Shown piece by piece: positions 7,107-56,826 of a DNA stretch of 64,000 bases. Each line of letters opens with the position of its first letter. Position 1 is the stretch's first letter. The position numbers and the translations under genes were made by a program. Location: positions 23,776 to 87,775 of the forward strand of contig JBBSJL010000001.1 of the NCBI GenBank assembly GCA_038257245.1, written 5' to 3'. Under the pieces are notes generated by a model. The model searched no databases, was not told where the DNA came from, and saw only the letters and a list, made by a program, of their open reading frames with translations. This DNA comes from Candidatus Saccharimonadales bacterium (GTDB lineage: Bacteria > Patescibacteriota > Saccharimonadia > Saccharimonadales > JACQNP01).

Positions 7107-7130
7107 GCATTACCTGATAGCATAAGCACT

Positions 7131-7514
7131 ATGGATAACCAAAAACAAAAAAAGATTTTACTAGTAGAAGACGATGACGCACTAGCTAGTGTGTATCAAA
7201 CACGTTTACAAGCAGAAAACTTTGATATTAGGCGGGTGCCGAATGGCGAAGATGCTTTAGCTGCAACCTTAGAATACAAACCAGACCTGATTTTGCTAGA
7301 TGTAATGATGCCTAAAGTTAGTGGATTCGATGTGCTGGATATTTTACGAAATACGCCCGAAACTGCAACAGTTAAGATCATTATGCTAACAGCACTCAGC
7401 CAAGACGCAGATAAAGAGCGTGCTAAGAGCTTGGGTGTAGATGACTATTTAGTGAAATCACAAGTTGTAATCGCCGACGTTGTCGACGTTATAAAACAAC
7501 GTCTTGGAATATAG
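7131..7514 (+). CDS. single-domain response regulator (receiver only)
   Basis: 127 aa. VEDDD acidic pocket, phospho-acceptor context DLILLDVMMP, MLTA, and K in DDYLVKS. Close paralog of the receiver domain of 45403-46686. Confidence 0.85.
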   Translation: MDNQKQKKILLVEDDDALASVYQTRLQAENFDIRRVPNGEDALAATLEYKPDLILLDVMMPKVSGFDVLDILRNTPETATVKIIMLTALSQDADKERAKSLGVDDYLVKSQVVIADVVDVIKQRLGI

Positions 7515-10863: not shown

Positions 10864-11913
10864 ATGGTTGAAAAGATTAAAAAACGAGGCTGGAAATCAG
10901 TCCTGACAGTAGTAACTATGCTAGCTTTAGCTGGACTTGCGTATTTTTTGCATGAACAAATATACGATACATATAGGAATATACAAAATGTGTATTATTG
11001 GGTCTTGTTTCTCATAATTCCATGGGAAATTCTTAACTACCACTCGCAGACTAAACTGTTTCAAGGGATATTTCATGTTATTAGGGTCAAAATTCCGTAT
11101 AAATTTATGTATAAAACAGCGCTGGAATTAAATTTTGTAAATACAGTTTTCCCGAGCGGTGGTGTGTCGGGTATTTCTTATTTTAGCTTACGTTTAAAAC
11201 CCAAGGGGGTTTCTACGGCTCAGTCTACATTGGTAAGTTTCATGAAGCTAATAGTTATTTTTGTATCGTTTCAGATACTTATGTTTATTGGCTTATTATT
11301 GCTGGCAATAGATGGCAAGGCAAGCGGTGTGCTGATTTTGATTGCCGGGTCGTTGGTAACGTTCATGGCATTTGGTACGTTCATGTTTGCATTTATTATC
11401 GGTAGCAAAAAGCGGATTAATGATTTCCTAATGTTTTTTACTAGGATAGCTAACAGGTTAGTGCATATTTTTAGCAAGAAAAGGGAAACAATAAATACTA
11501 AACGAGCAGAAGCAGTATTTTCTGAAATACACGAACAATATATGCAGATAAAATCGAATTTACGTGAATTAAAGCAACCATTAATGTATGGCTTGCTTGC
11601 AAATCTAGCAGAAATCCTAGTGATCTACACAGTTTATGTCGCATTTGGTCAATGGGTTAACCCAGGAGCGATAATTATTGCATATGCTGTGGCAAATTTT
11701 GCGGGGCTAATATCGGTGTTACCTGGAGGTGTTGGAATTTATGAAGTGTTAATGACGGCTGTGTTGGCCGCTGGTGGCATACCTGCGAGCCTAAGTTTAC
11801 CGGTAACAGTAATGTACAGAATACTCAACATGTCTATTCAATTGCCCCCAGGTTATATTCTTTATCACAAGGCAATAAACCAGGATCCCGATGTCGCACT
11901 TAACAAAAAGTAA
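10864..11913 (+). CDS. polytopic membrane protein (UPF0104 / lysyl-PG-synthase-TM-region-like)
   Basis: 349 aa, ~8 predicted TM helices, basic cytoplasmic loop in the middle. The family call is by overall pattern only. Confidence 0.45.
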   Translation: MVEKIKKRGWKSVLTVVTMLALAGLAYFLHEQIYDTYRNIQNVYYWVLFLIIPWEILNYHSQTKLFQGIFHVIRVKIPYKFMYKTALELNFVNTVFPSGGVSGISYFSLRLKPKGVSTAQSTLVSFMKLIVIFVSFQILMFIGLLLLAIDGKASGVLILIAGSLVTFMAFGTFMFAFIIGSKKRINDFLMFFTRIANRLVHIFSKKRETINTKRAEAVFSEIHEQYMQIKSNLRELKQPLMYGLLANLAEILVIYTVYVAFGQWVNPGAIIIAYAVANFAGLISVLPGGVGIYEVLMTAVLAAGGIPASLSLPVTVMYRILNMSIQLPPGYILYHKAINQDPDVALNKK

Positions 11914-13051
11914 CGATTATCAAAACAACCAAGTTTGGTCGGTCAGTGATTTCGTTGCTATATTTAACCAAACGATAGAATATGCGTATCCGTTTGTTAG
12001 TATTCAGGGTGAGCTGACTAACTTTAAAGTAAGTAAGAATAAATGGGTATATTTCGATCTAAAAGACGAAAATTCAAGTGTGAGGTTCTTCGGAACAATA
12101 TATGGCCTACCCGGCCCATTAGAAGACGGAATGTTGGTCAAGGTAAATGGTAGCCCAAGACTACATCCACAATTTGGGTTCAGTGTTTCGGTCCAGTCAA
12201 TTCATCCAGTAGGTGAGGGTGAAATAAAAAAGGCTGCCGATTTATTGCAGGCCAAATTACAAAAAGAAGGCTTATTCGAGGTATCGCGAAAACGCCCAAT
12301 ACCGTATCCGCCAACAAAAGTCGGGCTTGTAGCATCTTCAGAATCGGCGGCTTTTCATGATTTTATGAAAATATTAAATCACAGATGGACAGGAGTTGAT
12401 ATTCGATTAATCGATGTACAAGTACAAGGCGAGTCTGCACCTGGACAAATCGTAGGCGCAATCAGCGAACTAAACGCAACAGATGTGGAAGTGATTATTG
12501 TAACTCGTGGTGGGGGAAGCCCCGAAGACCTAGCTGCATTTAATCATGAAGTAGTTGTCCGGGCAGTGGCAACTAGCCGTATACCCACTGTGGTAGCTAT
12601 TGGTCACGAGGTTGACACATGTTTAGCTGAGTTGGCGGCCGACAAGCGTGCGAGTACTCCCAGCAACGCTGCAGAATTATTAGTTCCTGATAAAAAGTGG
12701 GAACTGGCAAATATTGAACAAATTTCTGATGAGCTAAACAGACTAATGAGCGTACATTTACTTAACCATAAAGATGCAGTACAGCAATCTGCAAAATTTT
12801 TAGATTCATCTCTTGAGCAGATGGTTGAAGCAGCCAAAAAAGAGGTAATGTCTGTAGGCAGCTTACTAAATAGCCTGAGCCCAAAAAATATACTAAATCG
12901 CGGGTATGCTTTAGTCAGATCTGAGGATGGAACATTGATCAGTAATATCAAGAAACTTAAGATAGGTGATAAGATAGCAATTGAACTTAGCGATGGTAAC
13001 GTCGCTGCAAAAATTATAGGAAGGACAAATAATGCCAAATTCAAAAAATAG
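11891..13051 (+). CDS. xseA: exodeoxyribonuclease VII large subunit
   Basis: 386 aa. N-terminal OB-fold (VSIQGELTNFKVS), catalytic core (IIVTRGGGSPEDL, IGHEVD). Overlaps xseB. Confidence 0.9.
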   Translation: MSHLTKSNDYQNNQVWSVSDFVAIFNQTIEYAYPFVSIQGELTNFKVSKNKWVYFDLKDENSSVRFFGTIYGLPGPLEDGMLVKVNGSPRLHPQFGFSVSVQSIHPVGEGEIKKAADLLQAKLQKEGLFEVSRKRPIPYPPTKVGLVASSESAAFHDFMKILNHRWTGVDIRLIDVQVQGESAPGQIVGAISELNATDVEVIIVTRGGGSPEDLAAFNHEVVVRAVATSRIPTVVAIGHEVDTCLAELAADKRASTPSNAAELLVPDKKWELANIEQISDELNRLMSVHLLNHKDAVQQSAKFLDSSLEQMVEAAKKEVMSVGSLLNSLSPKNILNRGYALVRSEDGTLISNIKKLKIGDKIAIELSDGNVAAKIIGRTNNAKFKK

Positions 13052-13226
13052 CTACAGAGATTTGCGGCAAGAACTGGATAACATTGTGGAGCAGCTACAA
13101 CAGGGCAACACAGAAGATATTGATAACGCTTTCAAACAATATGAACGAGGACAACTGTTAGTCAAGGAACTTTCACAATATCTTAAGGAAACTGAGAACA
13201 AGTTAAATAAGATTTCAAATAAATAG
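13032..13226 (+). CDS. xseB: exodeoxyribonuclease VII small subunit
   Basis: 64-aa helical protein (LDNIVEQLQQGN..DIDNAFKQYERGQLLVKEL). Overlaps the xseA 3' end by 20 nt. Confidence 0.85.
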   Translation: MPNSKNSYRDLRQELDNIVEQLQQGNTEDIDNAFKQYERGQLLVKELSQYLKETENKLNKISNK

Positions 13227-13234
13227 GATAAGTT

Positions 13235-13735
13235 TTGTTGCATACTTTATGGTTAACGACAGTCGTTTTATGTTTTATCGGGTTTGTTTGTTTTGTGTTT
13301 GTTATTGCTTATGGAGCTCCATTCTTGCCAACGCTAAAACCCCAGGTAGCCAAAGCACTAGACCTAATTGACCTAAAACCTGGGCAAACCTTATTAGAAC
13401 TAGGCAGTGGTGATGGGCGAATCATGGTAGAAGCCGCTAAGAGGGGTATTAATAGCATAGGTTATGAATTAAACCCATTACTTATCCTATATTCATTATG
13501 GCTGACGCGTAAATACAGAGACAAGATTACGATTAAGATGGCTAATTTTTGGAAGGTTCAGTTACCCAAGGCGGACGGGGTCTTTGTTTTCCTACTCACA
13601 CCTTATATGCAAAAGTTAGATGAAAAGATAAGTACTGAAAACCAGTCAAGACTAAAGCTTATAAGTTTTGCTTTTGCAATTCCAGGTAAAAAACCATCAA
13701 AAACCAGCGACGGATTATTTTTGTATAAGTACTAA
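13235..13735 (+). CDS. small membrane-anchored class-I SAM methyltransferase
   Basis: TTG start, N-terminal TM helix, SAM motif I LLELGSGDGRI. Confidence 0.6.
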   Translation: MLHTLWLTTVVLCFIGFVCFVFVIAYGAPFLPTLKPQVAKALDLIDLKPGQTLLELGSGDGRIMVEAAKRGINSIGYELNPLLILYSLWLTRKYRDKITIKMANFWKVQLPKADGVFVFLLTPYMQKLDEKISTENQSRLKLISFAFAIPGKKPSKTSDGLFLYKY

Positions 13736-13775: not shown

Positions 13776-14522
13776 ATGCCTCCAAATACGCCGCAAACGC
13801 CGACGTCTAATCCTGTGGGTGGGATGCCACAAAATCAACAACCGCTGCAAGGTCCGTTGATGTCACCCCCAAAACGGAAGAATAATACACTTCTAGTAGC
13901 CCTCGTTGTCGCTAGTGTATTCTTTATAATTAGTTTAATTTTTGCCATTTGGTCATTTATGGGAATGCAAAAATATAAAAACAACTCCGATGAAATTGTG
14001 GCTGTTGAAGTAGAAAAAACAAAACAAGAAACCGCAACCCAAAAAGATAATGAGTTTCTTGAAAAAGAGAAGACGCCATACAGGAACTACACCAGTTCGG
14101 ATGTTCTGGCTTCTATTAAGTTTGACTATCCTAAAACATGGTCGGCATTTATAGAGGAGGACAAGAATACTAATTCGGGTACCCCTCTTAACGGATATTT
14201 GCATCCTAATTTTGTGCCCGCTGTAGACTCAGGTACCGATTTTGCCTTACGTATAGAAGTAATTAGTCGACCATATAGTGATTCTTTGAAGGAACTTGAA
14301 AGCAAGGTAAAACAAGGGAAGATAAAAATTGCACCATATTCACTAGCGAAAGTCCCAACGGTTTTGGGTGTTAGAGCCAGTGGAGAGATAAATAAAGGAC
14401 AAAACGACACAATGGTCATGCTACCGATAAGAGACAAGACCTTAAAAGTTTATACAGAATCACAACAATTTGTACCTGATCTCGATAAAATTATTTTAGC
14501 TTCTCTGACATTTGTTCCGTAG
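13776..14522 (+). CDS. hypothetical membrane-anchored extracytoplasmic protein
   Basis: 248 aa. P/Q-rich N-terminus, a single TM helix (LLVALVVASVFFIISLIFAIW), then a ~170-aa beta-rich ectodomain. Confidence 0.6.
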   Translation: MPPNTPQTPTSNPVGGMPQNQQPLQGPLMSPPKRKNNTLLVALVVASVFFIISLIFAIWSFMGMQKYKNNSDEIVAVEVEKTKQETATQKDNEFLEKEKTPYRNYTSSDVLASIKFDYPKTWSAFIEEDKNTNSGTPLNGYLHPNFVPAVDSGTDFALRIEVISRPYSDSLKELESKVKQGKIKIAPYSLAKVPTVLGVRASGEINKGQNDTMVMLPIRDKTLKVYTESQQFVPDLDKIILASLTFVP

Positions 14523-14572
14523 TCAGTGATATACTACTTATTATAGACAGATAGGAGGGTAGTTCTTAAGTT

Positions 14573-15265
14573 ATGGTAGCAAATCACAGTTTTGATGATG
14601 GGCGCCTTTTAAGAGCACTAGCGGAACAGCTGAAGTTGCCGTTAATACAGATAGCAAGACTTGCTGAGCTAGGAGTGGGTGACAAAGAATCCATAGAACA
14701 GATTCTCCATACATCAGATATGGCAATTCAATTAATAGACGGGTTGTTACTGAGTAATGATATTCATGCTCAGCAAACGCTAGGGCTCGAACCAGTTTCA
14801 GTTAGTTCCGTACTACTGGCGGCTACTGAAGATCTTCGTCATCATGCTAAAAACTACGGGTGTGAGGTCGAGCTTGATGTAGGTGGCCGATTTGCGCCTG
14901 TTATGGGTAACTTTAGGGCACTAAGAACTGCATTTACAACACTGGGTTATTCAATGATAGAAGCACAAACCCAAGAATTGAATAACAAGATAGTCTTGTC
15001 GGTCCATTTAGGCAATAAGGGTATTGTTGCAGGAGTTTTTGGTGGCAGTAATGAAATTACTAAAGACGCATTTAAACGTGCAAAGGCACTAATGGGTTCA
15101 GCAAAACAGCCGTTTGTGTCAAAGAGCTCATCGTCCGCAGCTGGAATATTTATAGCTGATTCGTTATTTAGTGTTATTGCATCTCAGCTTCAGGTTGCTA
15201 AACATAACAAACTTTCGGGGCTGACTACCACGCTAACTCCTAGCCAACAATTAAAACTGGTCTAA
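14573..15265 (+). CDS. degenerate histidine-kinase-like protein (pseudo-HK, no TM/sensor)
   Basis: 230 aa collinear with DHp+CA domains, but the H-box reads ALAEQLKLPL (no His). The N-box region is GNFRALRTAFTTLGYSMIE and the G-boxes are degenerate (SSSAAGIFIADS). Confidence 0.5.
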   Translation: MVANHSFDDGRLLRALAEQLKLPLIQIARLAELGVGDKESIEQILHTSDMAIQLIDGLLLSNDIHAQQTLGLEPVSVSSVLLAATEDLRHHAKNYGCEVELDVGGRFAPVMGNFRALRTAFTTLGYSMIEAQTQELNNKIVLSVHLGNKGIVAGVFGGSNEITKDAFKRAKALMGSAKQPFVSKSSSSAAGIFIADSLFSVIASQLQVAKHNKLSGLTTTLTPSQQLKLV

Positions 15266-15269
15266 GCAG

Positions 15270-15650
15270 ATGAAAGTTCTACTGATTGAACCCGACAAAG
15301 TACTAAGGCAAATATATATTCAGGCATTTGAAGACCAAAACATTATAGTTAGTGCCTGTGCTAGTTCACAAGAAGCCGTGACTATACTCGAGGACTTTTT
15401 TGCAGATGTCATCGTTACTGAACTGCAGATTGCAGAACATAACGGGGTAGAGTTAATACACGAAATTCGTAGTTACCTCGAATGGCAAGACATACCAATA
15501 GTCATCAATTCAATAATCCCTCACAGCAACGTTGCTATTAATAATGCCGTGATGAAGCAACTTAACATCACAGATTATATGTATAAAGCAGTAACTAGTT
15601 TGCAAAAATTAATTTCTGTTACCGAACAGGCTTGTTACGAAAAAGCATGA
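15270..15650 (+). CDS. pseudo-receiver protein (phospho-Asp replaced by Glu)
   Basis: 126 aa with receiver-fold pattern. LLIEPD replaces the DD pocket. ADVIVTELQIAEHNG has Glu where the phospho-accepting Asp is expected. Conserved Lys retained (DYMYKA). Confidence 0.55.
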   Translation: MKVLLIEPDKVLRQIYIQAFEDQNIIVSACASSQEAVTILEDFFADVIVTELQIAEHNGVELIHEIRSYLEWQDIPIVINSIIPHSNVAINNAVMKQLNITDYMYKAVTSLQKLISVTEQACYEKA

Positions 15651-16348
15651 AACATCGAACCACTAAAGTTATTATATTAAAACGTACAAATTTTAAAGAA
15701 GCAGATAGGATATTGACTTTACTCAGTGATGAATGGGGTAAGATAAAAGTTATCGCTAAAGGTGTCCGAAAACAAAAATCAAAATTAGCGGGGGGTCTAG
15801 AATTACTTAGCGTGAGTGAAGTTAGCTATATTATCGGCAAGTCAGAAATATATACATTGACATCAAGCAGGCTAGTCAAGCATTATCAAGAAGTAGTCAA
15901 TGATATCGATAGAACGATGATAGCTTATTCTCTTATTAACAAGGTATATAAGCTCTCAGAAGATCATACAGGTCAAGAATTCTTTACATTACTTGATCAG
16001 TCACTTGTAGCATTGAATGATCAGATTGATTTGCGGCTGGTTGAGTCATGGTTTAACATTCAACTCCTTAAGCTTACAGGCCACACACCTAACTTGGTTA
16101 CCGATATAGATAACAAACCTCTCAAACAAGGGATGGAATATGCTTTTGATACGGATAAAATGTTGTTTAATCAAAATACAGCCGGTAAATATTCTGATAA
16201 TCACATAAAACTAACGCGTTTGCTGCTGAAAGTTGAAACTTGTGACAGGCTAAAACCTTTAACAGGATTAACAGAATATTTTGATTTAATGTTAAGGTTA
16301 TCCAAGCAGCTTGTAGGGCTAAATTTACGGCTAGAGTCAGACAATTAG
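15647..16348 (+). CDS. recO: DNA repair protein RecO
   Basis: The ATG at 15647 overlaps the upstream TGA (ATGA). N-terminal OB-fold pattern (VIILKRTNFKEADRILTLLSDEWGKIKVIAKGVRK) is typical of RecO. Confidence 0.85.
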   Translation: MKHRTTKVIILKRTNFKEADRILTLLSDEWGKIKVIAKGVRKQKSKLAGGLELLSVSEVSYIIGKSEIYTLTSSRLVKHYQEVVNDIDRTMIAYSLINKVYKLSEDHTGQEFFTLLDQSLVALNDQIDLRLVESWFNIQLLKLTGHTPNLVTDIDNKPLKQGMEYAFDTDKMLFNQNTAGKYSDNHIKLTRLLLKVETCDRLKPLTGLTEYFDLMLRLSKQLVGLNLRLESDN

Positions 16349-19031: not shown

Positions 19032-19610
19032 GTGAGGTTGTCTAAACCAACCACTGAAAAAACAAACTACGCATACGTTGATAGTCAGAATTTGAATCTG
19101 GGTATTCAAAAAATGGGCTGGAAGATGGACTGGAAAAAGTTCCGTGAATATCTACGAAATGAATTTGACGTTGGGGTCGCATATCTTTTTATTGGCTATA
19201 TGGCAGAGAACGCGCAAATGTATGAGCAGCTGCACGAAGTAGGTTATTTAATTGTACTAAAGCCGACTGTGGGAATGCTTAATCCAGTTACCGATCAGGC
19301 CGATGATGGCGAAGATAAAGAAAAGAAGGTGCCAATAAAAGGTAATATAGATGCCGAACTAGTTTTATACGCCATGAAAGACATGCCAAAATACAAAAAA
19401 GCGATTATTGTTTCGGGAGATGGTGATTTTTATTGTCTTGCGGAATATTTGGCCGAAAAGAAGCGCTTATTACATATTATGGCTCCGAACTGGCAATACT
19501 CATCTCTTCTAAAACCATACGAAGACTATATTATTCGTCTAGACAAATTACGAAAAACTCTAGAACACAAAACATACAGGAATCGTAGTAAAGCCAAGGA
19601 ATCAAAGTAA
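19032..19610 (+). CDS. NYN-domain (LabA-like) protein
   Basis: GTG start directly after the glyQS stop. YVDSQNLNLG N-terminal motif and VSGDGDFYCL acidic motif of NYN/LabA ribonuclease-like domains. Confidence 0.65.
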   Translation: MRLSKPTTEKTNYAYVDSQNLNLGIQKMGWKMDWKKFREYLRNEFDVGVAYLFIGYMAENAQMYEQLHEVGYLIVLKPTVGMLNPVTDQADDGEDKEKKVPIKGNIDAELVLYAMKDMPKYKKAIIVSGDGDFYCLAEYLAEKKRLLHIMAPNWQYSSLLKPYEDYIIRLDKLRKTLEHKTYRNRSKAKESK

Positions 19611-19615
19611 CGATA

Positions 19616-19870
19616 ATGAGTAATATTGAAATACGAGTTTTGGAAATCGAAGAGCGGAATCAAAAGGTTGAGCTAGATAAGGCATGGGAAACTAGCTGGA
19701 CCAGACGACTTTCAATTTCAACGCTGACATATTTTGTTGTTTTGATTTACATGATAGCGATCGGGAATGATCGATCTTACGTAAACGCCTTAGTACCATC
19801 AGTCGGATTTTTATTATCAACTTTGTTACTACCCTGGGTAAAGGATATTTGGCAAAAAATGTCTAAGTGA
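19616..19870 (+). CDS. small two-TM membrane protein
   Basis: 84 aa. Charged N-terminal helix followed by two hydrophobic helices. Confidence 0.5.
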   Translation: MSNIEIRVLEIEERNQKVELDKAWETSWTRRLSISTLTYFVVLIYMIAIGNDRSYVNALVPSVGFLLSTLLLPWVKDIWQKMSK

Positions 19871-19926
19871 TTAGTGGGCTTAAAAGATTATCCTGATACA
19901 ATTAGCATACTGGAAGGGGAGTTTGG

Positions 19927-21450
19927 TTGGATCAGGAATTAGCTTTAGAAATATTACTCAGTGGCAAAAATGTACTCCTGACAGGGGCGGCTGGTTCCGG
20001 TAAAACATATTTACTGAACAAGTATATTCGACATGCAAAGTCAGAAGGCAAGCATGTTGCAGTTACTGCAACTACTGGACTAGCAGCTACCCATCTTGGC
20101 GGCAATACAATTCACGCCTGGAGTGGTATGGGTATATATGACAAGTTACCAAAAAGTTTTTATGACAATTTACTAAAAGGCCGACGTGATATTATTAACA
20201 AAACAGATGTTTTAATTATAGATGAAGTGTCTATGTTGCATGACTACCGCTTAGACATGGTGGACGAAATTGCCCGGAGGGTTAGAGAAAATGATAAGCC
20301 CTTTGGGGGAATCCAGGTTGTTTTGTGCGGTGATTTCTTTCAACTTCCGCCAGTTAGTAGGAGTGACGAGCCAGAAAGTAGGTTTGTAGTAAGCTCGGCT
20401 GTCTGGGAAGAATTTAACCCAGTAACATGTTATTTGGCAGAACAACATAGGCAAAATGATGATGCATATTCGGAGATACTAAATGCACTAAGAGCAAATG
20501 ATTTGCGACGTCGCCATGCAGAAGCTTTGCTGTCGCGTCAAAAGACTTCTAAAACGGATCATGAAATTACCGAATTGCACACCACGAATGTTGATGTAGA
20601 TGCAATCAACAGTGAACGACTTGATAAACTCAACACCGAGGAACACGTTTACGAATCTGAGACTACTGGCAAAACAAATTATATAGATAATTTGAAGAGG
20701 TCGTGTTTGGCAAGTGATCAACTGGTGCTAAAAGAAGGTGCGTTTGTCATGTGCATTAAAAATAATCCAGAAAAAAAATACGTAAACGGTAGTTTAGGCA
20801 TAGTAATCGGATTCGATAAAGGTACTGACAACCCTATAGTAAAGTTAAATAACGGGCGTACACTAACAATTGGGCCCGAAACTTGGGAACTAAGAGATGG
20901 TGACAAAAAAAGAGCAAGTCTGAGCCAGGTACCGCTAAGATTAGCGTGGGCGATTACTGTTCACAAAAGCCAAGGCATGACTTTGGACGCAGCAAGAATA
21001 GATTTACGTAAAGCGTTTGTGGAAGGAATGGGTTATGTTGCATTGTCCCGAGTTAGGAGTCTAGATACACTGAGTTTGGTGGGTATAAATCAAATGGCGC
21101 TGAAGGTAAGCACAGAAGCACTAGAAATTGATCAACTTTTGCAAAGACAGTCAACTAAAGATAATAAAAGATTTGAGCATCTACGAGTACAAGCCAAAAA
21201 ACGTGCTGAAGAACCATCAGTAAAATCACCAGGCAAAGGCCCTTGGGCTACAAAACTTGCAAAAATGCGCGAGCAATACCCAAATGCTTACCGCCCATGG
21301 AAGCCATCTGATGACGAAAAGCTAGTAAAGTTATTTACGAAGAACAACAACGTTAAAGTAGACGAACTTGTAAAGACTTTTGGCAGACACCCAAGATCAA
21401 TCCGTCTCAGACTAGAAAAGCACTTTGGCGAAGACGCAGTTCCAAATTAG
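19927..21450 (+). CDS. Pif1/RecD-family SF1B DNA helicase with basic C-terminal extension
   Basis: TTG start after GGGGAG. Walker A GAAGSGKTY, DEVSM, GDFFQLPPV, TVHKSQGMTLD. ~100-aa K/R-rich C-terminal tail. Confidence 0.8.
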   Translation: MDQELALEILLSGKNVLLTGAAGSGKTYLLNKYIRHAKSEGKHVAVTATTGLAATHLGGNTIHAWSGMGIYDKLPKSFYDNLLKGRRDIINKTDVLIIDEVSMLHDYRLDMVDEIARRVRENDKPFGGIQVVLCGDFFQLPPVSRSDEPESRFVVSSAVWEEFNPVTCYLAEQHRQNDDAYSEILNALRANDLRRRHAEALLSRQKTSKTDHEITELHTTNVDVDAINSERLDKLNTEEHVYESETTGKTNYIDNLKRSCLASDQLVLKEGAFVMCIKNNPEKKYVNGSLGIVIGFDKGTDNPIVKLNNGRTLTIGPETWELRDGDKKRASLSQVPLRLAWAITVHKSQGMTLDAARIDLRKAFVEGMGYVALSRVRSLDTLSLVGINQMALKVSTEALEIDQLLQRQSTKDNKRFEHLRVQAKKRAEEPSVKSPGKGPWATKLAKMREQYPNAYRPWKPSDDEKLVKLFTKNNNVKVDELVKTFGRHPRSIRLRLEKHFGEDAVPN

Positions 21451-45402: not shown

Positions 45403-46686
45403 CTACAAAGCGATATTATTGGGGCTATTTGGGTCGCTTGATTCGGGAGCCTCAGCGACTGGTGTTTCGGTTGCTGCTGGCTGTTCAGTCGGAGCAGTAG
45501 CAGTTGCGGCGTTGCCATTTATTGTTCCGTCTTCAGAAATATTGATATTTGCAGCTTCAGTTTCTGGGGCGCTTGGTTGTGGAAGATCTACAGCAGGGCC
45601 ACTGTTGGCTTGAGCATTTTTAAGTTCCTCTTGTTGTAATAAGGCATTCAGGTCCGGTCCGGTTGAGTTGAGGTCGTTTATAGGGGTTATTACTTTCTTT
45701 GACGCAGCTGGTGAGTTTTGGTTAGCTACAGGGTTTGGTGCAGGAGTTTCTGGTGTAGTGTCCGTTGTGGTAGGTGTGTGTTCAGGAGCAATGGCTTGGG
45801 GCTGAGCTCCAGTTTCTGTAGCTGGTTTATCGAGTAAATCGTTAACTGCATCAGCTAGTTTTGCAGCATTGTCGGCTGCAGCTGTCGTTGCATCTTGTGG
45901 TTCTTCAGCTACTGCAATCTCTTCTACAGGATCAGGGTTAGTTTCGGGCTCTGGTGGTGACGCTACAGGAGTAGGTGTTGGCTTGGGCTCTTCTGCTGGC
46001 TCAGTTGTCTTGGCGTTCTCTACAAAATTATTTATTTGGTCTTCAATTTTTTTCCCCTGATCTTGACTCGATTCACTCAATTGTTGTTCGTCAGGTTGAT
46101 CGTCGTTAGTTACTGGGTCTGTAGCTGGGGGCTGGGCTGGCTCAGATACAGGAGCAGGCATAGCGGTTACTGATGGGGTGTCTTGTTGATCGGTATCGGT
46201 ACTATCTGAGTTATCGGTTGCAGTCGTGTTAGACTCATCTACCACGGGCTGTGGCATAGGGTCTGGGCTGGCGGCAGGTACAGGATCTGGGCTACCAGTC
46301 TGGGCAGCCGGTGCTGCTTCACCAGAAAGAACTTCCCGGGCAACTGCTGCCACATCTTCAAGTGTAACTTGGGATTTGACCAAGTATCGGTCGGCACCAA
46401 GTTTATCAGCGCGCTCTTTATCTTCGGCCTGTGACAAAGCTGTCATCATAATTATTTTGGTATTCTTGGTTTCTGGGGTTGTGCGAAGAATATCTAGCAT
46501 ATCAAAACCGCTTATCTTAGGCATCATTACATCAGAGATAATAAGATCTGGTTTTTCCTTTACTGCTAATGCTAGCGCCTCTTCACCGTCTTTTGCCGAT
46601 ACAATTTCATAACCTTCTGCGATTAAACGTGCTTCGTAAATTTCTCGTAGATTGTTGTCGTCTTCGACTAACATTATTTTTGACAT
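45403..46686 (-). CDS. response regulator: receiver domain + ~300-aa acidic P/T/A/E-rich low-complexity tail
   Basis: The receiver (VEDDNN, DLIISDVMMP, MMTA, RYLVKS) is ~60 % identical by eye to 7131-7514. The remainder is low-complexity (PDPVPAASPDPMPQP..., TPTPVASPPEPETNPDP...). No output domain recognised. Confidence 0.8.
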   Translation of the reverse strand: MSKIMLVEDDNNLREIYEARLIAEGYEIVSAKDGEEALALAVKEKPDLIISDVMMPKISGFDMLDILRTTPETKNTKIIMMTALSQAEDKERADKLGADRYLVKSQVTLEDVAAVAREVLSGEAAPAAQTGSPDPVPAASPDPMPQPVVDESNTTATDNSDSTDTDQQDTPSVTAMPAPVSEPAQPPATDPVTNDDQPDEQQLSESSQDQGKKIEDQINNFVENAKTTEPAEEPKPTPTPVASPPEPETNPDPVEEIAVAEEPQDATTAAADNAAKLADAVNDLLDKPATETGAQPQAIAPEHTPTTTDTTPETPAPNPVANQNSPAASKKVITPINDLNSTGPDLNALLQQEELKNAQANSGPAVDLPQPSAPETEAANINISEDGTINGNAATATAPTEQPAATETPVAEAPESSDPNSPNNIAL

Positions 46687-46766: not shown

Positions 46767-48497
46767 TTATACATTTAGTTGCGGGTTTGCTGCTTCGGCT
46801 GTTTGCAGCTCCTTAGCCTGTAGTGAACTAATTCTAGGTAGATTGATATAGAATGTGCTTCCCTTGTCGACCTCACTATCCACCCAGATTCTTCCGCCAT
46901 AGATTTGTACGATTTTTTGGCAAATAAATAATCCAAGTCCAGTTCCTCCAACGGTTCGTGTGCTAGAATTATCGACTCGATAAAACTTTTGGAATAGGTG
47001 TGGGACGTCCTCTTTTGGAATGCCTGGGCCAGTGTCACGAATGTAGAACTGTATGACATCGGGGTTTCCAGTTAAGCCGATCGATATCTTGCCATTCTCG
47101 GTGTACTTCACGGCGTTATCGAACAAATTAGTAATAACTTCACGTAATCTATCGGGATCGGCGTAGGTATAGTAAAGCGGTGTAATTACTTTCTTGCCAG
47201 CACTCGCGTCGTTAGATTTGTTGCTTGTACCGATAGTAAACTCGACCAATAGGCCTTTCTTTTCGGCAGTAAACCTAAGCGAGTCAGCGACCTGCTCAAG
47301 GAATACTCCCATATCAATTGCTGCCGGGTGGCTAACTAATCGGCCGTCTTCTGCTTTGGCGCTAGTAAGCAAGTCCTGAAATAATTGCCCTAAGTGTTGT
47401 GTGCTGGAGTGGGCCTTTTCTAGATAACTCCTAGCCTTGACGTCGATATTGCTAACCTTATCATTCAGGGCAAGGGCTAAGTAACCTTCGATGGCTGCTA
47501 CTGGTGTACGCATTTCGTGGCTTGCTGTACTAATAAAATCAGCTCGGCGTTGTTCTTCGGCTTTCGCATTGCTAACATCGCGGATAACTGCAACCGTTCC
47601 AGCAAGTTCATTAGATTTATCAATAATGACTGGAGACACAACAAACGAAACGACGTGAGTTTTTTTGTCTCTGGCAGCAAGATTGTAGGTATTGCTCGTG
47701 GCTTGCCTATGAGCGATTACCATCGAGAAAGGATTAATATTACTAGGTATGTCTTCATCAAGTTCGTTTTTTATATTAACCACGTTATGGACGTTTATCC
47801 CAAGTGCTTCTTCTACGGGCCAGCCTGTTAGAACTGCGGCAGTTGAGTTCATGTTGTTAATATTGCCATCAGTATCGGTCACAATAACACCGTCGGCTAT
47901 AGACTGAATGAGGATCTCGGATTGTAGTTGTTTGTTTTTTAACGCCCCCGACAGTTTAGAAATTTGGGCGTTGGTTTTTAGGTCATAATAACGACGAAAA
48001 ACGAGGTAGCTAAGTATGCCTATGAGATAAGATCCGAAAAGACCTAGCATACTGAGAGTGCTTACTTCAAAAACACCTTCAGAGGAAGTTGACGACAAAA
48101 TAAAGTAAAGCGAAATCACAAAACACATACCGGTGATGGCGTATGTACCAAAAAGGCCACTAAACAAAGCTAGAGCAAGCCAAGAAATCATATAGATTGA
48201 GCTAAATTCGCCAGTCGTGTGTACGAGGCTGAGGATAGTCAAACATTGTAGGAGATAAAGTATTAGGGTTGCCTGCCAGGCATTTGCATGTGCAACCTCT
48301 CTCTTGTATATAAATACAATGTAAACTAGTTGCATTAGTGCAAAGCCGAGGGTCATGTAGGTTAGGGCTGATTCCTGGCTGTCTAAAATGTATTGGGGGG
48401 CAAACTGATTAACTGAGCTCACCAATGCAAGTGCAGCCGCTAAAACTAACGAAACGCGACTATACAAAAGATACCACCGGTCAGAAACAGATTGCAT
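46767..48497 (-). CDS. sensor histidine kinase (multi-TM N-terminus, PAS, HisKA, HATPase_c)
   Basis: 576 aa. ~6 N-terminal TM helices, PAS-like segment (IADGVIVTDTDGNI), H-box STASHEMRTPVAAI, N box NLFDNAVKYT, G boxes DTGPGI / GTGLGL. Confidence 0.9.
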   Translation of the reverse strand: MQSVSDRWYLLYSRVSLVLAAALALVSSVNQFAPQYILDSQESALTYMTLGFALMQLVYIVFIYKREVAHANAWQATLILYLLQCLTILSLVHTTGEFSSIYMISWLALALFSGLFGTYAITGMCFVISLYFILSSTSSEGVFEVSTLSMLGLFGSYLIGILSYLVFRRYYDLKTNAQISKLSGALKNKQLQSEILIQSIADGVIVTDTDGNINNMNSTAAVLTGWPVEEALGINVHNVVNIKNELDEDIPSNINPFSMVIAHRQATSNTYNLAARDKKTHVVSFVVSPVIIDKSNELAGTVAVIRDVSNAKAEEQRRADFISTASHEMRTPVAAIEGYLALALNDKVSNIDVKARSYLEKAHSSTQHLGQLFQDLLTSAKAEDGRLVSHPAAIDMGVFLEQVADSLRFTAEKKGLLVEFTIGTSNKSNDASAGKKVITPLYYTYADPDRLREVITNLFDNAVKYTENGKISIGLTGNPDVIQFYIRDTGPGIPKEDVPHLFQKFYRVDNSSTRTVGGTGLGLFICQKIVQIYGGRIWVDSEVDKGSTFYINLPRISSLQAKELQTAEAANPQLNV

Positions 48498-48700: not shown

Positions 48701-49891
48701 TTAGGCTGCTTTTAATACTTTACCGGGGGTTCGAACAGCTTTGCTGACTATGCTTATGCCTGGTCCTCGGGTGACTTTACCGATTCGTTTTGCGGATATT
48801 CCCTGTTTGGCTGCTTCGTCTTTTAGTCTCTCGCCGTCACTCCCGTCGATTGCTAATATATATCCTTGCCCACCGTGCCATGTGGTGTATGATTCTTCAT
48901 CGCTCATTGGACGAAGAGTTCCGTCTGGGTTTTCTACTTCAGTTATTTCTTGCGCATGCTGTAAAATATCTGGAACTTCGAAGGGGTCGTAAATATGCGC
49001 GCCAAGTTGAGTCGCTTCGAGCATTCTGCCCAGCTTCTCCCAAATTGAGCCACCTGAAACATGTGCAACGCCGTGAATATCAACTTTTTCTTTTACCTCA
49101 ATCTTGTAACCACCAGTCAGAGTTGTCATAAGACCGGAGTAAATAGTGGAAGGAGTGACAGCGAGTTCGCCAAGTGTAGTATCTTTGAACTTCTCAGTTT
49201 CCCACCGGTTTCCGTAGACTTTTTCAAACGTCTTACGTATTCGCGAAATACCATTACATCTTGCACTTATAGGTTCAGCAAATCCCCAAAGCTCATCGTT
49301 TTCCTGGACACGCTCTCCGGTAATCATTCGGTCTTGGTGTACTAAGCCAACCGCATCACCAATCCAGTCCACAGAGAAATCTCTTCTTCCCTGTAGTCTA
49401 GCTCCATGAACAGCGATTTCGCCAGTAAACAATACCGCTTTTGCATCATTTGCGCCTTCAGCAAGACCTTGGAAAAGTTGGTCAATGTAATGCAGATAGT
49501 CATCGCCAGGTTCGCCCAAAGTACTCACGATGAGAGCGTTATTGATAAACACGGTCTGCCCGCCCTCAACCGGGTTGTCGTCTGCCGCCATTGCAACCAA
49601 ATCTTTACCTAGCCCAAAAAAGTTACCGTTTCCTTCATAAAAGTCGGGTTTCGTGCCTGTTCCATCAATACCTGACGTCCCGTAAACATCTGGACGGTTT
49701 CTTATTTCGTCAAAATTTAGATACTTTGATGCAGAAAAGCGAGTGTCAAATGAAATTGGTTCGCCGAATTCACCTGCCCTGTTTGCCCAAGTTGTTTGAC
49801 ACCAGTCCGCGGCTATTTGTGAGGCTGCATTACTTAAACCTAAGTCAACTCCAGCCTGTCTGTAGGCTTCCATTCTGTCTAACTCTGCCAT
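48701..49891 (-). CDS. purM: AIR synthase (PurM)-family protein, divergent and extended (396 aa)
   Basis: Collinear with E. coli PurM: YRQAGVDL, GIDGTGTK, DLVAMAADD, GLAEGA...TGEIA, HVSGGSIWEKL. Confidence 0.75.
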   Translation of the reverse strand: MAELDRMEAYRQAGVDLGLSNAASQIAADWCQTTWANRAGEFGEPISFDTRFSASKYLNFDEIRNRPDVYGTSGIDGTGTKPDFYEGNGNFFGLGKDLVAMAADDNPVEGGQTVFINNALIVSTLGEPGDDYLHYIDQLFQGLAEGANDAKAVLFTGEIAVHGARLQGRRDFSVDWIGDAVGLVHQDRMITGERVQENDELWGFAEPISARCNGISRIRKTFEKVYGNRWETEKFKDTTLGELAVTPSTIYSGLMTTLTGGYKIEVKEKVDIHGVAHVSGGSIWEKLGRMLEATQLGAHIYDPFEVPDILQHAQEITEVENPDGTLRPMSDEESYTTWHGGQGYILAIDGSDGERLKDEAAKQGISAKRIGKVTRGPGISIVSKAVRTPGKVLKAA

Positions 49892-50697
49892 TACATCTCC
49901 TTTGCGTAGTTAACCGCACCTTGAATTATTTTCGCTGCAAAATCCTCTGCAAATATAGTCTCAGGACGACGCCAGTTTGGATGATGCTCGCGTCGAGTAA
50001 AGCGTTCGTCGTGGGGCATCATCCCAAAAACAATCTCATTCGGACTGCAAGTCCCTGCGATGCCAAGTGGCGAACCGTTCGGGTTATCAGGATGTTCTTC
50101 GGTAGGGTTGCCGTTGCTGTCACAGTAGCGTAGAACTACCTGCTTGCTCAGAACTAGTTCGGCGTAATCGTTCGGATCACGGGCTACTATACGACCTTCA
50201 GCATGGGCTACCGGAAGCTCGATGATACGACCAACATCTTCCTTTGGAATAAAAGGACAAACCGTATCTTCAACACGTGCCTTAACCCAGCGACACTCAA
50301 ATTTCATATTCGCATTACGATCAAGTGTAAATGTAGGCTTGTCATCAGGATCAATGCGCCCATGTTGCAAAAGACCAGATTCGAGAAGGATTTGGTTACC
50401 ATTACAGTTACCTAATACTGGTTTTCTAGCTTCAACAAAAGCGTTTAGCTGATCGGCAACAATGGATGTTCTCATATCGCTGGCGGCTATCGCACCGGCA
50501 CGAATGATATCACCGTAGCTGAACCCGCCGGGCACGAACAGACCTTGCAAGTTATCAATCCTAACTTCGCCACTCTTTACGTCGGCAATGTGAACGAATT
50601 GTGCTGCTGCTCCTGCCTGGTTTAGCGTATCGAAAGTTTCCGCCTCACAGTTGATTCCTGGGAATAGTAGGACTCCAAATTCTGGACTTCTGCTCAT
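49891..50697 (-). CDS. purQ: FGAM synthase glutaminase subunit (PurQ)
   Basis: FGVLLFPGINCEAET, VPGGFSYGD, catalytic Cys context LGNCNGNQIL, C-terminal HPNW. ATG 50697 overlaps the purL TGA (ATGA). The stop overlaps the purM ATG. Confidence 0.8.
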   Translation of the reverse strand: MSRSPEFGVLLFPGINCEAETFDTLNQAGAAAQFVHIADVKSGEVRIDNLQGLFVPGGFSYGDIIRAGAIAASDMRTSIVADQLNAFVEARKPVLGNCNGNQILLESGLLQHGRIDPDDKPTFTLDRNANMKFECRWVKARVEDTVCPFIPKEDVGRIIELPVAHAEGRIVARDPNDYAELVLSKQVVLRYCDSNGNPTEEHPDNPNGSPLGIAGTCSPNEIVFGMMPHDERFTRREHHPNWRRPETIFAEDFAAKIIQGAVNYAKEM

Positions 50698-53540: not shown

Positions 53541-54234
53541 TTACTTCCCCTAATGCTTTATGTATCCAGGTTGGTACCCAAAGTTTCTCCACTCGCATTA
53601 CTTCATTTTTTAATTTATTAACTGTACCGAATTGTTCCCATTCCTGTTGCATTTCTGGAGATACTGTTACTGGTTGATGCCCAATCGAGGCGCCTGTATC
53701 GTATGCGGGTAAGCCATTTTTATCTAATCTCGTATCCATCCAGTGGAACGTGGGGCCGGAATGTTCAAGACCTAGCTGCATAACCTGTTCTTGTACACCA
53801 GTACCGTGAAAGCCCTGAGTTTCTGGTAATGGCCCAGGATGGGTGTTAGCTATCGGGACTTCTTCTAACACTTTCCCGATTATTTTTTTCATAAAGCCCA
53901 ATGCTACAAATATGCTAACGCCATACTCATCTGCAAGTTGGACTAATTTTTCACTTGCTTCGTAGCTAATGGTTCCCTCTACTTCATTTCCATCAATTTC
54001 TGGCAGAGTACAGGCCTTCTCTGTTTTGTTAGATATGTGATGTATTGGTATATCTAGTCTGTCTGCTCTCTCCCATACTCCTGCATTTGAGCTGTTTGGA
54101 CCATTGTTGCATGCGACGAAGGCTATTGTTGTATTTGGTAGCTCGTTTGCACCTATAGCGTCTTGGACTGCCTCGAAGGTACTGCCCCCTCCTGATGCTA
54201 ATACGCCAATTCTAAATTCTGGATTATCGGTCAC
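53533..54234 (-). CDS. purN: GAR transformylase (PurN)-like formyltransferase
   Basis: GTG start after GAGGT. IGVLASGGGSTFEAV, catalytic N/H in IANTHPGPLP, Asp in MDTRLDKNG. ~40-aa C-terminal extension. Confidence 0.7.
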   Translation of the reverse strand: MTDNPEFRIGVLASGGGSTFEAVQDAIGANELPNTTIAFVACNNGPNSSNAGVWERADRLDIPIHHISNKTEKACTLPEIDGNEVEGTISYEASEKLVQLADEYGVSIFVALGFMKKIIGKVLEEVPIANTHPGPLPETQGFHGTGVQEQVMQLGLEHSGPTFHWMDTRLDKNGLPAYDTGASIGHQPVTVSPEMQQEWEQFGTVNKLKNEVMRVEKLWVPTWIHKALGEVNG

Positions 54235-54291: not shown

Positions 54292-55572
54292 TTAACGGAT
54301 TTTTACTTTGGGGAGTTCATCCCAGTGTGTAACGTAGCGGGGGCTACGTAGTAGGTATTTGGGTTGCCACTTGTCCCCCAACTTTTCAGCCGCGTAACCA
54401 ATATGCTCTTTGCCAAACCGTTCGTTGATGTTGTCGATAGTCTGCATACGTCGATTCGATCTATTAATCGCTTGGGGTTTGACATCACCTAGCAAATCTA
54501 TTTGGACTAGGTCTTGTGGAACGAAATCGTAAAGACATATACCAGCGCGGTGGTAGTAGGCAGAAGAACTGAATATTTCTTCTAGAGCATTAACAACAGC
54601 TTTTATTAGGGTACCAGTATCATTTGTAGGGGCTGATAGTTTAATTTCTGTTTGCCATGTCTTGTACCCGGGTTTATGTCTGTTACTAGTCATAAAAATA
54701 CTGATACGTTTGGCTACTTGCTTACTTTTACGTAGCTGCTGACTAGCGCGTACAACAAAACTAGCTATAGCAGATTCCATAACATCAAAACTGTTGGTAT
54801 CTTCACCAAACGTTCTGGTTCGGGCGATACTTTTGCAGGGTTTACCAATTATTTCCAAAGGCAAGCATGGTATACCCTTTAGCTCGCTAATCATCTGTGC
54901 CCCATGAACTCCCACAATGCTTCTAGCCAGCTCTGGGCGCATTCTAGATAGGTCTAGGGCAGTCAATACGCCAGTAGCTTGGAGCTGTGGTGCTAATCTT
55001 CTACCCACGCCCCATACTTCGCCTACAGCCATTTTAGATAATGCTTCTGTTTGTAATGCCTGACCCTGCAAGTTTACAACGCCATTTGAACCAGAGGTTT
55101 TCTTGGCTTGCTCGGCGGCTAGTTTTGCCAGGGTTTTGGTAGGAGCTATACCAATCGACACAGGTACTCCCACCCATTCGAGGATCTTTTGCCTTAGAGT
55201 TGTTCCCCACTCCTCGTAACTTTGTATGTCTAGCTGGCTGAGATCCAGAAAAGATTCATCTACTGAATAGACTTCTATGCGAGGAGTGACTGACGATAAT
55301 ATGCCAATGATACGTCGAGATATATCGCTGTAAAGCGAAAAGTTAGCCGAAAATGAAATGACATTGTTTTTCTGAAAGACGCTTCGATATTTGAAGGCGG
55401 GAGCTCCCATTGGTATGCCTAGGGCTTTGGCCTCATTGCTGCGCGCCACAGCGCAACCATCATTGCTAGACAGCACAACTACGGGTTTGCCTTCCAGGTC
55501 AGGGCGGAATATACGCTCACAGCTGACAAAGAAGTTGTTGCAGTCCACCAGCGCAAAAACAGGTGTATTCAT
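54292..55572 (-). CDS. umuC: Y-family translesion DNA polymerase (UmuC-like)
   Basis: FALVDCNNFFVSCERIFRPDLEGKPVVVLSSNDGCAVARS is the UmuC/DinB N-terminal signature. SVDESFLD catalytic motif. Confidence 0.9.
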   Translation of the reverse strand: MNTPVFALVDCNNFFVSCERIFRPDLEGKPVVVLSSNDGCAVARSNEAKALGIPMGAPAFKYRSVFQKNNVISFSANFSLYSDISRRIIGILSSVTPRIEVYSVDESFLDLSQLDIQSYEEWGTTLRQKILEWVGVPVSIGIAPTKTLAKLAAEQAKKTSGSNGVVNLQGQALQTEALSKMAVGEVWGVGRRLAPQLQATGVLTALDLSRMRPELARSIVGVHGAQMISELKGIPCLPLEIIGKPCKSIARTRTFGEDTNSFDVMESAIASFVVRASQQLRKSKQVAKRISIFMTSNRHKPGYKTWQTEIKLSAPTNDTGTLIKAVVNALEEIFSSSAYYHRAGICLYDFVPQDLVQIDLLGDVKPQAINRSNRRMQTIDNINERFGKEHIGYAAEKLGDKWQPKYLLRSPRYVTHWDELPKVKIR

Positions 55573-55932
55573 TCAAAATTTCCTATAGCGATGAATGATA
55601 GCAGTCACGACACCCCACACAATGGACTGCTTTGGCAGTTCATTGGTATGGGAAATCGAGAACGCATCATTATGTATCCAGACAATTTTGTCACTTTGTT
55701 TTACTTTTAGCGCCCGGTCAATCAGGGCCACATCACCACTAAATATCCCCAAGTCAGACCACTCATTCCCCTCAATGTTCATCATAAAGGTACTAGCACT
55801 GTGCCATATCAATAGACTGTTTAAATCGAGGTTCTTTATATTTACATCAGTTGCAGGGTTTGGAAAACCACTATGAACTGATATGCCCGTAGAATCATCC
55901 ATGCCTATTACCGTGTGCCTACTAGAGTCCAT
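55573..55932 (-). CDS. UmuD-like S24-fold protein lacking the Ser/Lys catalytic dyad
   Basis: Collinear with E. coli UmuD (SGFPNPATD...LDLNSLLIWHSASTFMM...). GDSM is replaced by GNEW and the TVKK Lys region by SISHT. Its stop abuts the umuC ATG (TGAATG). Confidence 0.65.
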   Translation of the reverse strand: MDSSRHTVIGMDDSTGISVHSGFPNPATDVNIKNLDLNSLLIWHSASTFMMNIEGNEWSDLGIFSGDVALIDRALKVKQSDKIVWIHNDAFSISHTNELPKQSIVWGVVTAIIHRYRKF

Positions 55933-56823: not shown

Positions 56824-56826
56824 GAT

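Follow-up and report, generated by a model that had tools for sequence, protein, structure and literature searches.

Can a histidine kinase and its receiver stay together as a conserved pair after the residues of the phosphorelay have been replaced? This question is raised by two adjacent genes in a stretch of 64,000 nucleotides (hereafter the window) from a Candidatus Saccharimonadales bacterium (contig JBBSJL010000001.1), which encode a kinase-like protein of 230 residues and a receiver-like protein of 126 residues directly upstream of recO. A preliminary description had taken them, from the sequence, for a pseudokinase and a pseudo-receiver that may form a phosphorylation-independent regulatory pair. 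We have found that both proteins keep the folds of two-component partners, that their phospho-accepting residues are replaced, and that the pair is conserved, syntenic and under purifying selection. The best-supported reading, which we infer with fair confidence, is a constitutive complex of the kinase-like and the receiver-like protein that works by protein contacts and independently of phosphorylation.

Since the 230-residue protein has no match in Pfam at E<=10 and none in NCBIfam, we have derived its homology from a family profile, from hhalign and from a structure model. A database search gave 117 relatives of about 230 residues, which carry no precomputed Pfam domain. When a profile of 55 relatives was compared with the PDB, it matched the dimerisation and histidine phosphotransfer (DHp) region of CpxA (E 5e-5) and DivL (E 0.013). 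The AlphaFold2 (AF2) model (pLDDT 85, pTM 0.84) shows a two-helix hairpin followed by an alpha/beta domain, and in a Foldseek search of the PDB its best matches are HK853 cores, aligned over the full length with E 4e-11 and template modelling (TM) scores of 0.70-0.73. Further matches are DivL and RetS, and CusS, AdeS and EnvZ-type cores with TM scores of ~0.7. According to the model, Foldseek and hhalign, the protein has both parts of a HisKA-type kinase, i.e., a DHp hairpin and a catalytic and ATP-binding (CA) domain of the Bergerat type, which bears out the collinearity proposed in the preliminary description. In addition, because the reading frame opens at 14570, an N-terminal transmembrane or sensor region is impossible, as had also been proposed.

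In the register of the family profile, the H-box position AEQLKLPL falls on SHELRTPL, and this places Glu18 at the phospho-His (His248 of CpxA, His243 of EnvZ). The same register was obtained by hhalign to EnvZ, PhoR, CpxA and PhoQ over 206 columns, and Glu18 again falls on the phospho-His in a MAFFT alignment with six canonical kinases (these four and the two of the window). The DHp domain contains no conserved His at all. The E/DxxT/N phosphatase motif is also lost, with Gln19 at position H+1 and Leu22 at H+4. As for the ATP-binding motifs, the Asn of the N box is missing, DxGxG of the G1 box is replaced by GGSNE and GxGxG of the G2 box by AAGIF, and the F box is absent (Table 1).

The protein does not reach the Pfam gathering thresholds for HisKA and HATPase_c, and the same tendency is found in its family. 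HATPase_c is recognised in none of the 55 members and, weakly (0.0016), in one of 148 more divergent members, while HisKA appears in four of the 55, below the threshold, and in 16 of the 148, with a best value of 6e-5. That is, the protein has the fold of a histidine kinase without the phospho-His and the ATP-binding residues, and is nevertheless conserved, which is what defines a histidine pseudokinase. A lineage-specific departure has also been seen in the window protein, where Ala189 stands at a position at which most relatives have Gly.

For the 126-residue protein, Pfam Response_reg (PF00072) is recognised with 45.4 bits against a cut-off of 30.2 (1e-11), and the AF2 model, made with an alignment of three sequences, shows the full (beta-alpha)5 topology of this family with a pLDDT of 82. 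A search with the single sequence gave only three matches; a profile of 70 receiver sequences finds RR468 (E 2e-14) as the best match in the PDB, and DivK at 8e-12. RR468 is also the best Foldseek match of the model (TM score 0.82-0.85), with DivK and PhoB among the others, and hhalign against E. coli PhoB gave a probability of 98%. The pairwise alignments to RR468 and RssB, the alignment of the family profile to RR468, and the PhoB hhalign all give the same residue mapping. Glu51 takes the place of the phospho-Asp. In the acidic Asp-Asp pair, the first position stays acidic (Glu7) and the second is Pro8. On the other hand, Ser81 aligns with the conserved Thr/Ser at the end of beta4, and the conserved Lys is retained as Lys106. 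In the window (15585-15590) this Lys is followed by Ala107, where 74 of 77 orthologues have the usual Lys-Pro, again a lineage-specific departure. With its PF00072 fold and without the phospho-Asp and the second acidic residue, the protein is a pseudo-receiver (PsR) as defined in 10.1101/2025.06.23.661182.

The individual replacements given in the preliminary description (an H box without His, degenerate N and G boxes, Glu for the phospho-Asp, EPD for the DD pocket, a kept Lys) are thus all reproduced, and profile alignment puts Glu18 and Glu51, instead of His and Asp, at the canonical sites. Its broader statement that every phosphorelay residue appears substituted holds for the phospho-His, the ATP boxes, the phospho-Asp and the second acidic residue, but not for Ser/Thr81, Lys106, Glu7 and Asp9, which persist.

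It could be argued that such genes are decaying remnants, or that the residues only seem to be missing because fast-evolving proteins of the candidate phyla radiation have been misaligned, considering that the kinase-like protein has no Pfam match and that the receiver match of 1e-11 is weaker than those of the canonical receivers in the window. However, these canonical genes serve as an internal control. The two canonical kinases, both with intact H, N, G1, F and G2 boxes, match HATPase_c at 1e-32 and 2e-27 and have the N boxes NLFDNAVKY and NLIENAIKY; a profile of E. coli kinases finds them at 1e-40 and 1e-36, but does not find the 230-residue protein at E<=1. The three canonical receivers have the usual Asp, with Response_reg values of 1e-20 to 1e-24. 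With intact kinases and receivers encoded elsewhere in the window, the degeneracy is to be ascribed to this pair and not to the lineage. The models are also confident, and four independent alignments concur on the catalytic positions.

The conservation data decide this point. When each species was represented by a single genome, relatives turned up in at least 280 genomes, practically all of them Saccharibacteria, and we have fetched the best 80 of these 280 loci. All 80 are of the Saccharibacteria type, a few of them under other taxon labels but with the same gene order. Three of the latter (assemblies labelled Limnocylindria, Nevskiaceae and Dormiibacterota; our loci L018, L057 and L078) are probably mis-binned or mislabelled. 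Contig ends aside, the order xseA, xseB, methyltransferase, membrane protein, pseudokinase, pseudo-receiver, recO is found in 80/80 loci. The two genes of the pair are intact and adjacent in every untruncated locus, and their spacing is -4 to +9 nt in most loci; being adjacent, co-oriented and co-occurring, they have the arrangement of a cognate pair.

In the pseudokinase, Glu18 is kept in 79 of the 80 loci, and Lys21 and Pro23 in 78 each. In the 77 receiver orthologues, Glu7 and Pro8 are found in 76, Asp9 in 72, Glu51 in 75 and Lys106 in all, and position 81 is Ser or Thr in 75 (S 39, T 36). Glu occupies both phospho-sites in 73 of 77 pairs; among the others, two have a receiver Asp but Val at the Thr/Ser site, and one has Asn in the kinase-like protein. 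We have further calculated the ratio of non-synonymous to synonymous substitution rates (dN/dS), which could be estimated from only a few close locus pairs as most pairs are saturated at synonymous sites. The pseudokinase has values of 0.03-0.11 and the pseudo-receiver values of 0.03-0.14, which are comparable to the 0.03-0.05 of recO. Several pairs even show higher conservation of the pseudokinase than of RecO (e.g., 96% versus 89% and 84% versus 66% identity). Such low dN/dS values indicate that the genes are not decaying, and together with the intact reading frames and the invariant family-specific motifs they refute the idea of remnants or artefacts, to which we give practically no probability. 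The earlier suggestion that the pair is maintained rather than decaying hence holds up, with no disruption in the untruncated loci of relatives, and the proposal of a phosphorylation-independent regulatory pair gains support from the residue losses at the profile and structure levels, the conservation and the dN/dS.

To what extent does the replacement at the His site vary in the wider family? When 1.84 billion representatives were searched exhaustively with the profile, 283 clusters of 50% identity scored E<=1e-30, and the 150 listed of these 283 have lengths of 212-256 residues. At the His position, 265 family members have E in 232, D in 10, Q in 9, H in 3 and L in 2 cases, and N, Y, A and R in single cases. 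That is, Glu is favoured but not obligatory at this site. In the three members that carry a His, the ATP boxes are still degenerate; two of them, P0263 and P0221, lie in the same synteny, and translation of the partner genes of P0263 and P0250 shows that their Asp site is also Glu. The locus of the most kinase-like member (P0219, 235 residues) is of the Glu/Glu type, and the locus of the widely sampled RecO P0337 is also pseudo-type, its adjoining kinase-like gene having no Pfam match. As far as can be judged from the sequences, nothing suggests phosphotransfer anywhere in the family. A search with a RecO profile for the oral Saccharibacteria (Southlakia, TM7x) found none recognisable among the best 120 of 4985 matches.

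If phosphotransfer has gone, the pair may still have a chemistry of another kind. It may bind a nucleotide or second messenger in the remodelled CA pocket, bind a metal, or be phosphorylated at another residue, e.g., His57 of the receiver or His145 or His211 of the kinase-like protein. Around the former ATP pocket and lid, G154, G175, R178, Q179, G191, A195, D196, H211, G216 and Q226 are invariant or nearly so, and in the receiver His57, in the beta3-alpha3 loop, is present in 76 of 77 orthologues, with the acidic pocket, the Ser/Thr and the Lys kept. These residues would suit such a chemistry. But the protein lacks the Asn that binds Mg, the Asp that binds adenine and the glycine-rich motifs of the lid, the DHp domain offers no conserved His, and no precedent was found in the literature searched, so we regard a chemically active pair as decidedly unlikely.

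The distribution of conservation within the two proteins is in line with a complex held by protein contacts. The most conserved segment of the pseudokinase is DHp helix 1, with a mean top-residue frequency of 0.80. In the receiver, this frequency is 0.97 for the beta1-alpha1 loop, 0.85 for helix 3, 0.74 for the beta5-alpha5 loop and 0.71 for the alpha3-beta4 loop, while the lowest values are those of helix 4 (0.27) and helix 5 (0.36), which usually serve for output and dimerisation. Besides His57, the conserved residues of the receiver family include Gly59, Glu61, Glu65, Arg67, Ser68, Tyr69 and Trp72. When a receiver docks on its kinase, as in HK853-RR468, its helix 1 and active-site loops make contact with DHp helix 1. 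Considering that DHp helix 1 and the active-site loops are conserved here, and that HK853 and RR468 are the nearest structures, it seems that the old interface has been kept for binding. The canonical HK853-RR468 pair of Thermotoga maritima, which also has a single-domain receiver, provides the closest solved structures for both halves, with the same domain order and size. The differences are that HK853 has His260, a complete set of N, G1, F and G2 boxes and a sensor and transmembrane part, and RR468 has Asp53 with the acidic pair; all of these are replaced or absent here.

Based on the above analyses, we propose that the two proteins constitute a cognate but catalytically dead two-component pair. 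The 230-residue protein would be a soluble, sensor-less pseudokinase of DHp and CA domains, probably dimeric through the DHp hairpin, and is predicted neither to bind ATP in the usual way nor to carry a phospho-His. The 126-residue receiver is predicted not to be phosphorylated on Asp; Glu51, Ser81 and Lys106, together with Pro8 in place of the second acidic residue, most likely fix it in one activated-like conformation. The receiver would dock by the old phosphotransfer interface, its helix 1 and active-site loops being placed against DHp helix 1 near Glu18. Protein-protein contact would then transmit the signal or function. The remodelled CA domain and helix 3 of the receiver, which is nearly invariant, may offer extra binding surfaces, and helix 3 may bind either the CA domain itself or another partner. 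The tight translational coupling of the two genes should keep the subunits stoichiometric.

The supposed activated-like state of the receiver can be compared with PhoB D10A/D53E (PDB 2JB9), which is constitutively active and is changed at the same two positions that are Pro8 and Glu51 here. The analogy fits a locked receiver but does not prove it, as that protein is a laboratory mutant of a DNA-binding regulator, whereas here the changes are the natural state of a single-domain protein whose active conformation is putative. Natural pseudo-receivers (PsR/ALR, e.g., FrzS, and the plant pseudo-response regulators) likewise have the PF00072 fold without key active-site residues, and Glu is their commonest replacement of the phospho-Asp (10.1101/2025.06.23.661182). 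The same study marks the beta3-alpha3 loop and helix 3 as distinctive of pseudo-receivers, and these are the regions in which we see the strongest family-specific conservation; it also reports that FrzS binds its partner by the alpha3-beta4-alpha4 face. The characterised pseudo-receivers covered there are orphans or are fused with further domains, while the present one is adjacent and translationally coupled to a cognate-looking pseudokinase.

Is the pair needed by the cell? Wang et al. (Cell 2023, PMC10633639) have performed transposon sequencing (Tn-seq) in Southlakia epibionticum ML1, and their Table S1 contains the same nine-gene order as the window; we list its calls and reads beside the window genes in Table 1. 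SEML1_0246 and SEML1_0247, which correspond by position to the pseudokinase and the pseudo-receiver, are both marked as core families (PMC10633639). Judged from these positional orthologues, the pair appears important for growth.

The same data bear on the neighbouring repair genes. The location of the pair between xseAB and recO might suggest a regulator or adaptor of recombination or repair that acts with these proteins, a view favoured by the gene order in 80/80 loci and by the receiver stop codon that overlaps the start of recO in at least 50 of 76 loci. In Southlakia, however, xseA, xseB and recO tolerate transposon insertions, and the positional orthologues of the pair do not. Since the latter are lost while insertions in the repair genes are tolerated, both a RecO-centred function and simple polarity are argued against. 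Moreover, the block holds unrelated housekeeping genes such as that of glycyl-tRNA synthetase (glyRS), so that the order may reflect operon packing in a small genome, and no promoter or terminator signal above chance bounds a sub-operon (the counts in our scan are at or below the shuffled expectation). We consider a repair function very improbable. For the coupling to recO stated in the preliminary description, this means that the ATGA overlap is real and recurrent, but the functional tie is unsupported.

Another explanation is that the pair modulates canonical two-component systems, either with the pseudokinase heterodimerising with or titrating a real kinase in a RetS-like manner, or with the pseudo-receiver competing for a kinase without an output of its own. 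The window contains two canonical kinases and three canonical receivers, including an orphan one, RetS and DivL are among the structural matches of the pseudokinase, and roles as binding competitors have been proposed for pseudo-components (10.1101/2025.06.23.661182). In Southlakia, however, the cell can do without the canonical components, or nearly so (SEML1_0238 NE; SEML1_0317 NE/NE/GD; SEML1_0318 NE; PMC10633639), whereas the positional orthologues of the pair are lost. An essential role exerted only through non-essential systems is improbable, unless the pair restrains a toxic activity. In addition, the tight 1:1 coupling of the genes and the co-conserved interface point to each other as the main partners. 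Modulation of this kind is thus unlikely.

Several points weigh against the constitutive, phosphorylation-independent complex that we prefer. The acidic pocket of Glu7, Asp9 and Glu51 persists with the Ser/Thr and the Lys, so that metal or small-ligand chemistry may be possible. Glu is not universal at the His site, which argues against a strict charge-mimic role for that residue. SEML1_0246 is degenerate, but less so than the window protein: in Table S2 of PMC10633639 it matches HATPase_c at 6.9e-6 and HisKA at 3.4e-4, against 7.4e-26 and 2.5e-11 for the canonical SEML1_0318, while SEML1_0247 matches Response_reg at 1.2e-17, about the same as the canonical SEML1_0317. The Southlakia lineage may therefore retain more function, in which case the Tn-seq result may not transfer. 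Finally, the loss of ATP binding and of phosphotransfer and the mutual binding are what we infer from sequences and models, and the complex and its downstream partner are likewise putative.

Among known systems, DivL and DivK of Caulobacter crescentus deserve comparison, as the pseudokinase has DivL, and the receiver DivK, among its best matches in sequence and structure. DivL is a large, membrane-associated protein with PAS domains, and its His site is occupied by Tyr. DivK is a true receiver, which signals by being phosphorylated, while in the present pair both partners are dead, the Glu replacements are fixed, and the kinase-like protein has no accessory domain. What the two systems share is a DHp and CA core without phospho-His combined with a single-domain receiver, and DivL and DivK are reported to pass information by binding and not by phosphotransfer (PMC4211667; PMC12963549). 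A more far-reaching version of our proposal, which we hold to be doubtful, is that the pair derives from a DivL/DivK-like switch and has become essential and hard-wired. It would be a complex frozen in the "phosphorylated" state by Glu at both sites, would organise growth, division or mother-cell/swarmer differentiation in the epibiotic Saccharibacteria, and would be regulated by abundance or partner binding rather than by phosphate. If true, this would be the first known cognate two-component pair that is phosphotransfer-dead on both sides yet indispensable.

PsmA, a hybrid histidine pseudokinase of Streptomyces, functions independently of phosphorelay (Commun Biol 2026, PMC12963549). Its H-box His is Glu in S. 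venezuelae and D, Q, V or Y in other species, a variation similar to that in the present family, and its ATP motifs are degenerate and its E/DxxT/N phosphatase motif lost (PMC12963549). Unlike the window protein, PsmA exceeds 1200 residues, carries PAS domains and a disordered region, is fused to a receiver in which the Asp is kept, is confined to Streptomycetaceae, binds DivIVA and can be deleted (PMC12963549). The present pair consists of two small separate proteins, has a receiver without the Asp, and is found Saccharibacteria-wide.

The His is absent from about 0.9% of HisKA domains and the Asp from about 2% of receivers, and the mode of action of pseudo-receivers is an open question (10.1101/2025.06.23.661182). 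The literature searched describes no pseudo two-component system in Saccharibacteria, and no adjacent, cognate-looking pair that is dead on both sides, consists of bare DHp-CA and receiver folds, and is conserved class-wide. The pair reported here is minimal, with 230 and 126 residues and no accessory domains, is conserved class-wide in ultrasmall, genome-reduced bacteria, and purifying selection acts on it as strongly as on RecO. Should the Southlakia orthologues be of this type, the pair would be needed for growth in a genetically manipulable organism, and would then offer a compact and tractable model for phosphorylation-independent signalling by two-component folds. The analysis also provides a functional lead on two Saccharibacteria "core" genes that are now annotated as an ordinary histidine kinase, a response regulator or hypothetical proteins.

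Table 1. Features of the window in order of position, with the genes at the same places of the nine-gene order in S. epibionticum (PMC10633639 Table S1: HMM calls as P0/P1/P2, where NE is non-essential and ES essential; normalised reads as T0, T1, T2)
Feature	Positions	Strand	Basis or remark	Southlakia gene
Orphan single-domain canonical receiver	7107-7511	+	Response_reg 1.4e-23; ~7 kb upstream of the pair	
LPG-synthase-like flippase	10864-11913	+		SEML1_0241, flippase-like; NE/ES/ES
xseA	11891-13051	+		SEML1_0242; NE
xseB	13032-13226	+		SEML1_0243; NE
Small methyltransferase	13235-13735	+		SEML1_0244; NE
Membrane-anchored protein, one transmembrane helix and extracytoplasmic domain	13776..14522	+	Part of the syntenic block; upstream neighbour in loci	SEML1_0245, hypothetical; ES/ES/ES
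Histidine pseudokinase, 230 aa	14573..15265	+	DHp hairpin ~residues 3-66, degenerate CA residues 73-230; ORF, AF2, Foldseek, profile, hhalign	SEML1_0246, positional orthologue; GD/GD/ES; reads 91.9, 3.8, 0.9
Glu18 codon GAA, phospho-His site of H box A17-E18-Q19-L20-K21-L22-P23-L24	14624..14626	+	Alignments	
N-box-equivalent helix, residues 114-131, without Asn	14912..14965	+	FRALRTAFTTLGYSMIEA; hhalign, MAFFT	
G1-box remnant, residues 155-162, VFGGSNEI in place of V-x-D-x-G-x-G-I	15035..15058	+	hhalign, MAFFT; columns variable in the family	
G2-box remnant and following helix, residues 189-196, AAGIFIAD, third Gly replaced by Phe	15137..15160	+	Family consensus GAG[IV]F[VI]AD	
Single-domain pseudo-receiver, 126 aa, (beta-alpha)5 fold	15270..15650	+	Pfam PF00072, AF2, Foldseek, profile match	SEML1_0247, "response regulator", 366 bp; NE/GD/ES; reads 46.6, 0.75, 0
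Glu7-Pro8-Asp9 codons, at the acidic Asp-Asp pair of the beta1-alpha1 loop	15288..15296	+	Alignments	
Glu51 codon GAA, phospho-Asp site at end of beta3	15420..15422	+	Alignments	
Lys106 codon AAA, retained receiver Lys	15585..15587	+	Alignments	
ATGA, recO start over pseudo-receiver stop (TGA 15648-15650)	15647..15650	+	Sequence; 4-nt overlap in at least 50/76 loci	
recO, 233 aa from ATG at 15647	15647..16348	+	RecO_N, RecO_C, TIGR00613 matches	SEML1_0248, RecO; NE/NE/GD; reads 1265, 513, 295
glyRS		+	3' of recO	SEML1_0249, GlyRS; GD/ES/ES
Canonical receiver	45403-46686	-	Asp/Thr/Lys present; Response_reg 9e-24; adjoins kinase 46767-48497	
Canonical PAS histidine kinase	46767-48497	-	Intact H, N, G1, F, G2 boxes	
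Second canonical pair	56431-58368	-	513-aa histidine kinase (56827-58368) and 130-aa single-domain receiver	

The gene for the membrane-anchored protein precedes the pair in nearly all fetched loci that reach that far. We have considered this protein as the missing sensor, and have rejected it as a direct partner of the pair: its cytoplasmic N-terminus is short and unconserved, and it has no match in Pfam or among the PDB sequences. Its positional orthologue SEML1_0245 is essential and Patescibacteria-enriched, with a predicted PsbP/Mog1p-like structure (PMC10633639 Tables S1, S2). On the other side of the pair, recO is followed on the same strand by a cation antiporter gene and glyRS, and then by genes for an NYN-domain protein and a PIF1-like helicase (19032-21450, + strand).

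Some of the canonical components also have counterparts in Southlakia. SEML1_0317 and SEML1_0318, which are non-essential, have the same arrangement as the second canonical pair of the window, and the non-essential orphan receiver SEML1_0238, a few genes upstream of the flippase gene, resembles the orphan receiver at 7107-7511. In the protein encoded at 45403-46686, the receiver domain is followed by ~300 residues of low complexity, rich in Pro, Glu, Thr and Ala, and no recognised output domain.

Two further gene groups of the window have been observed on the minus strand. The first (48701-54234) is a cluster of the purine-biosynthesis type, encoding a PurM-like protein related to AIR synthase, a PurQ-type GATase_5, a PurL-like protein of 948 residues and a PurN-like formyltransferase, and is of note in a member of the Patescibacteria, in which nucleotide biosynthesis is generally said to be lacking (PMC10633639). 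The second (54292-55932) comprises a UmuC-like Y-family polymerase gene (IMS, IMS_C, DUF4113) directly downstream of a short ORF for an S24 peptidase-like protein of the UmuD/LexA type, and these genes look like an error-prone repair module.

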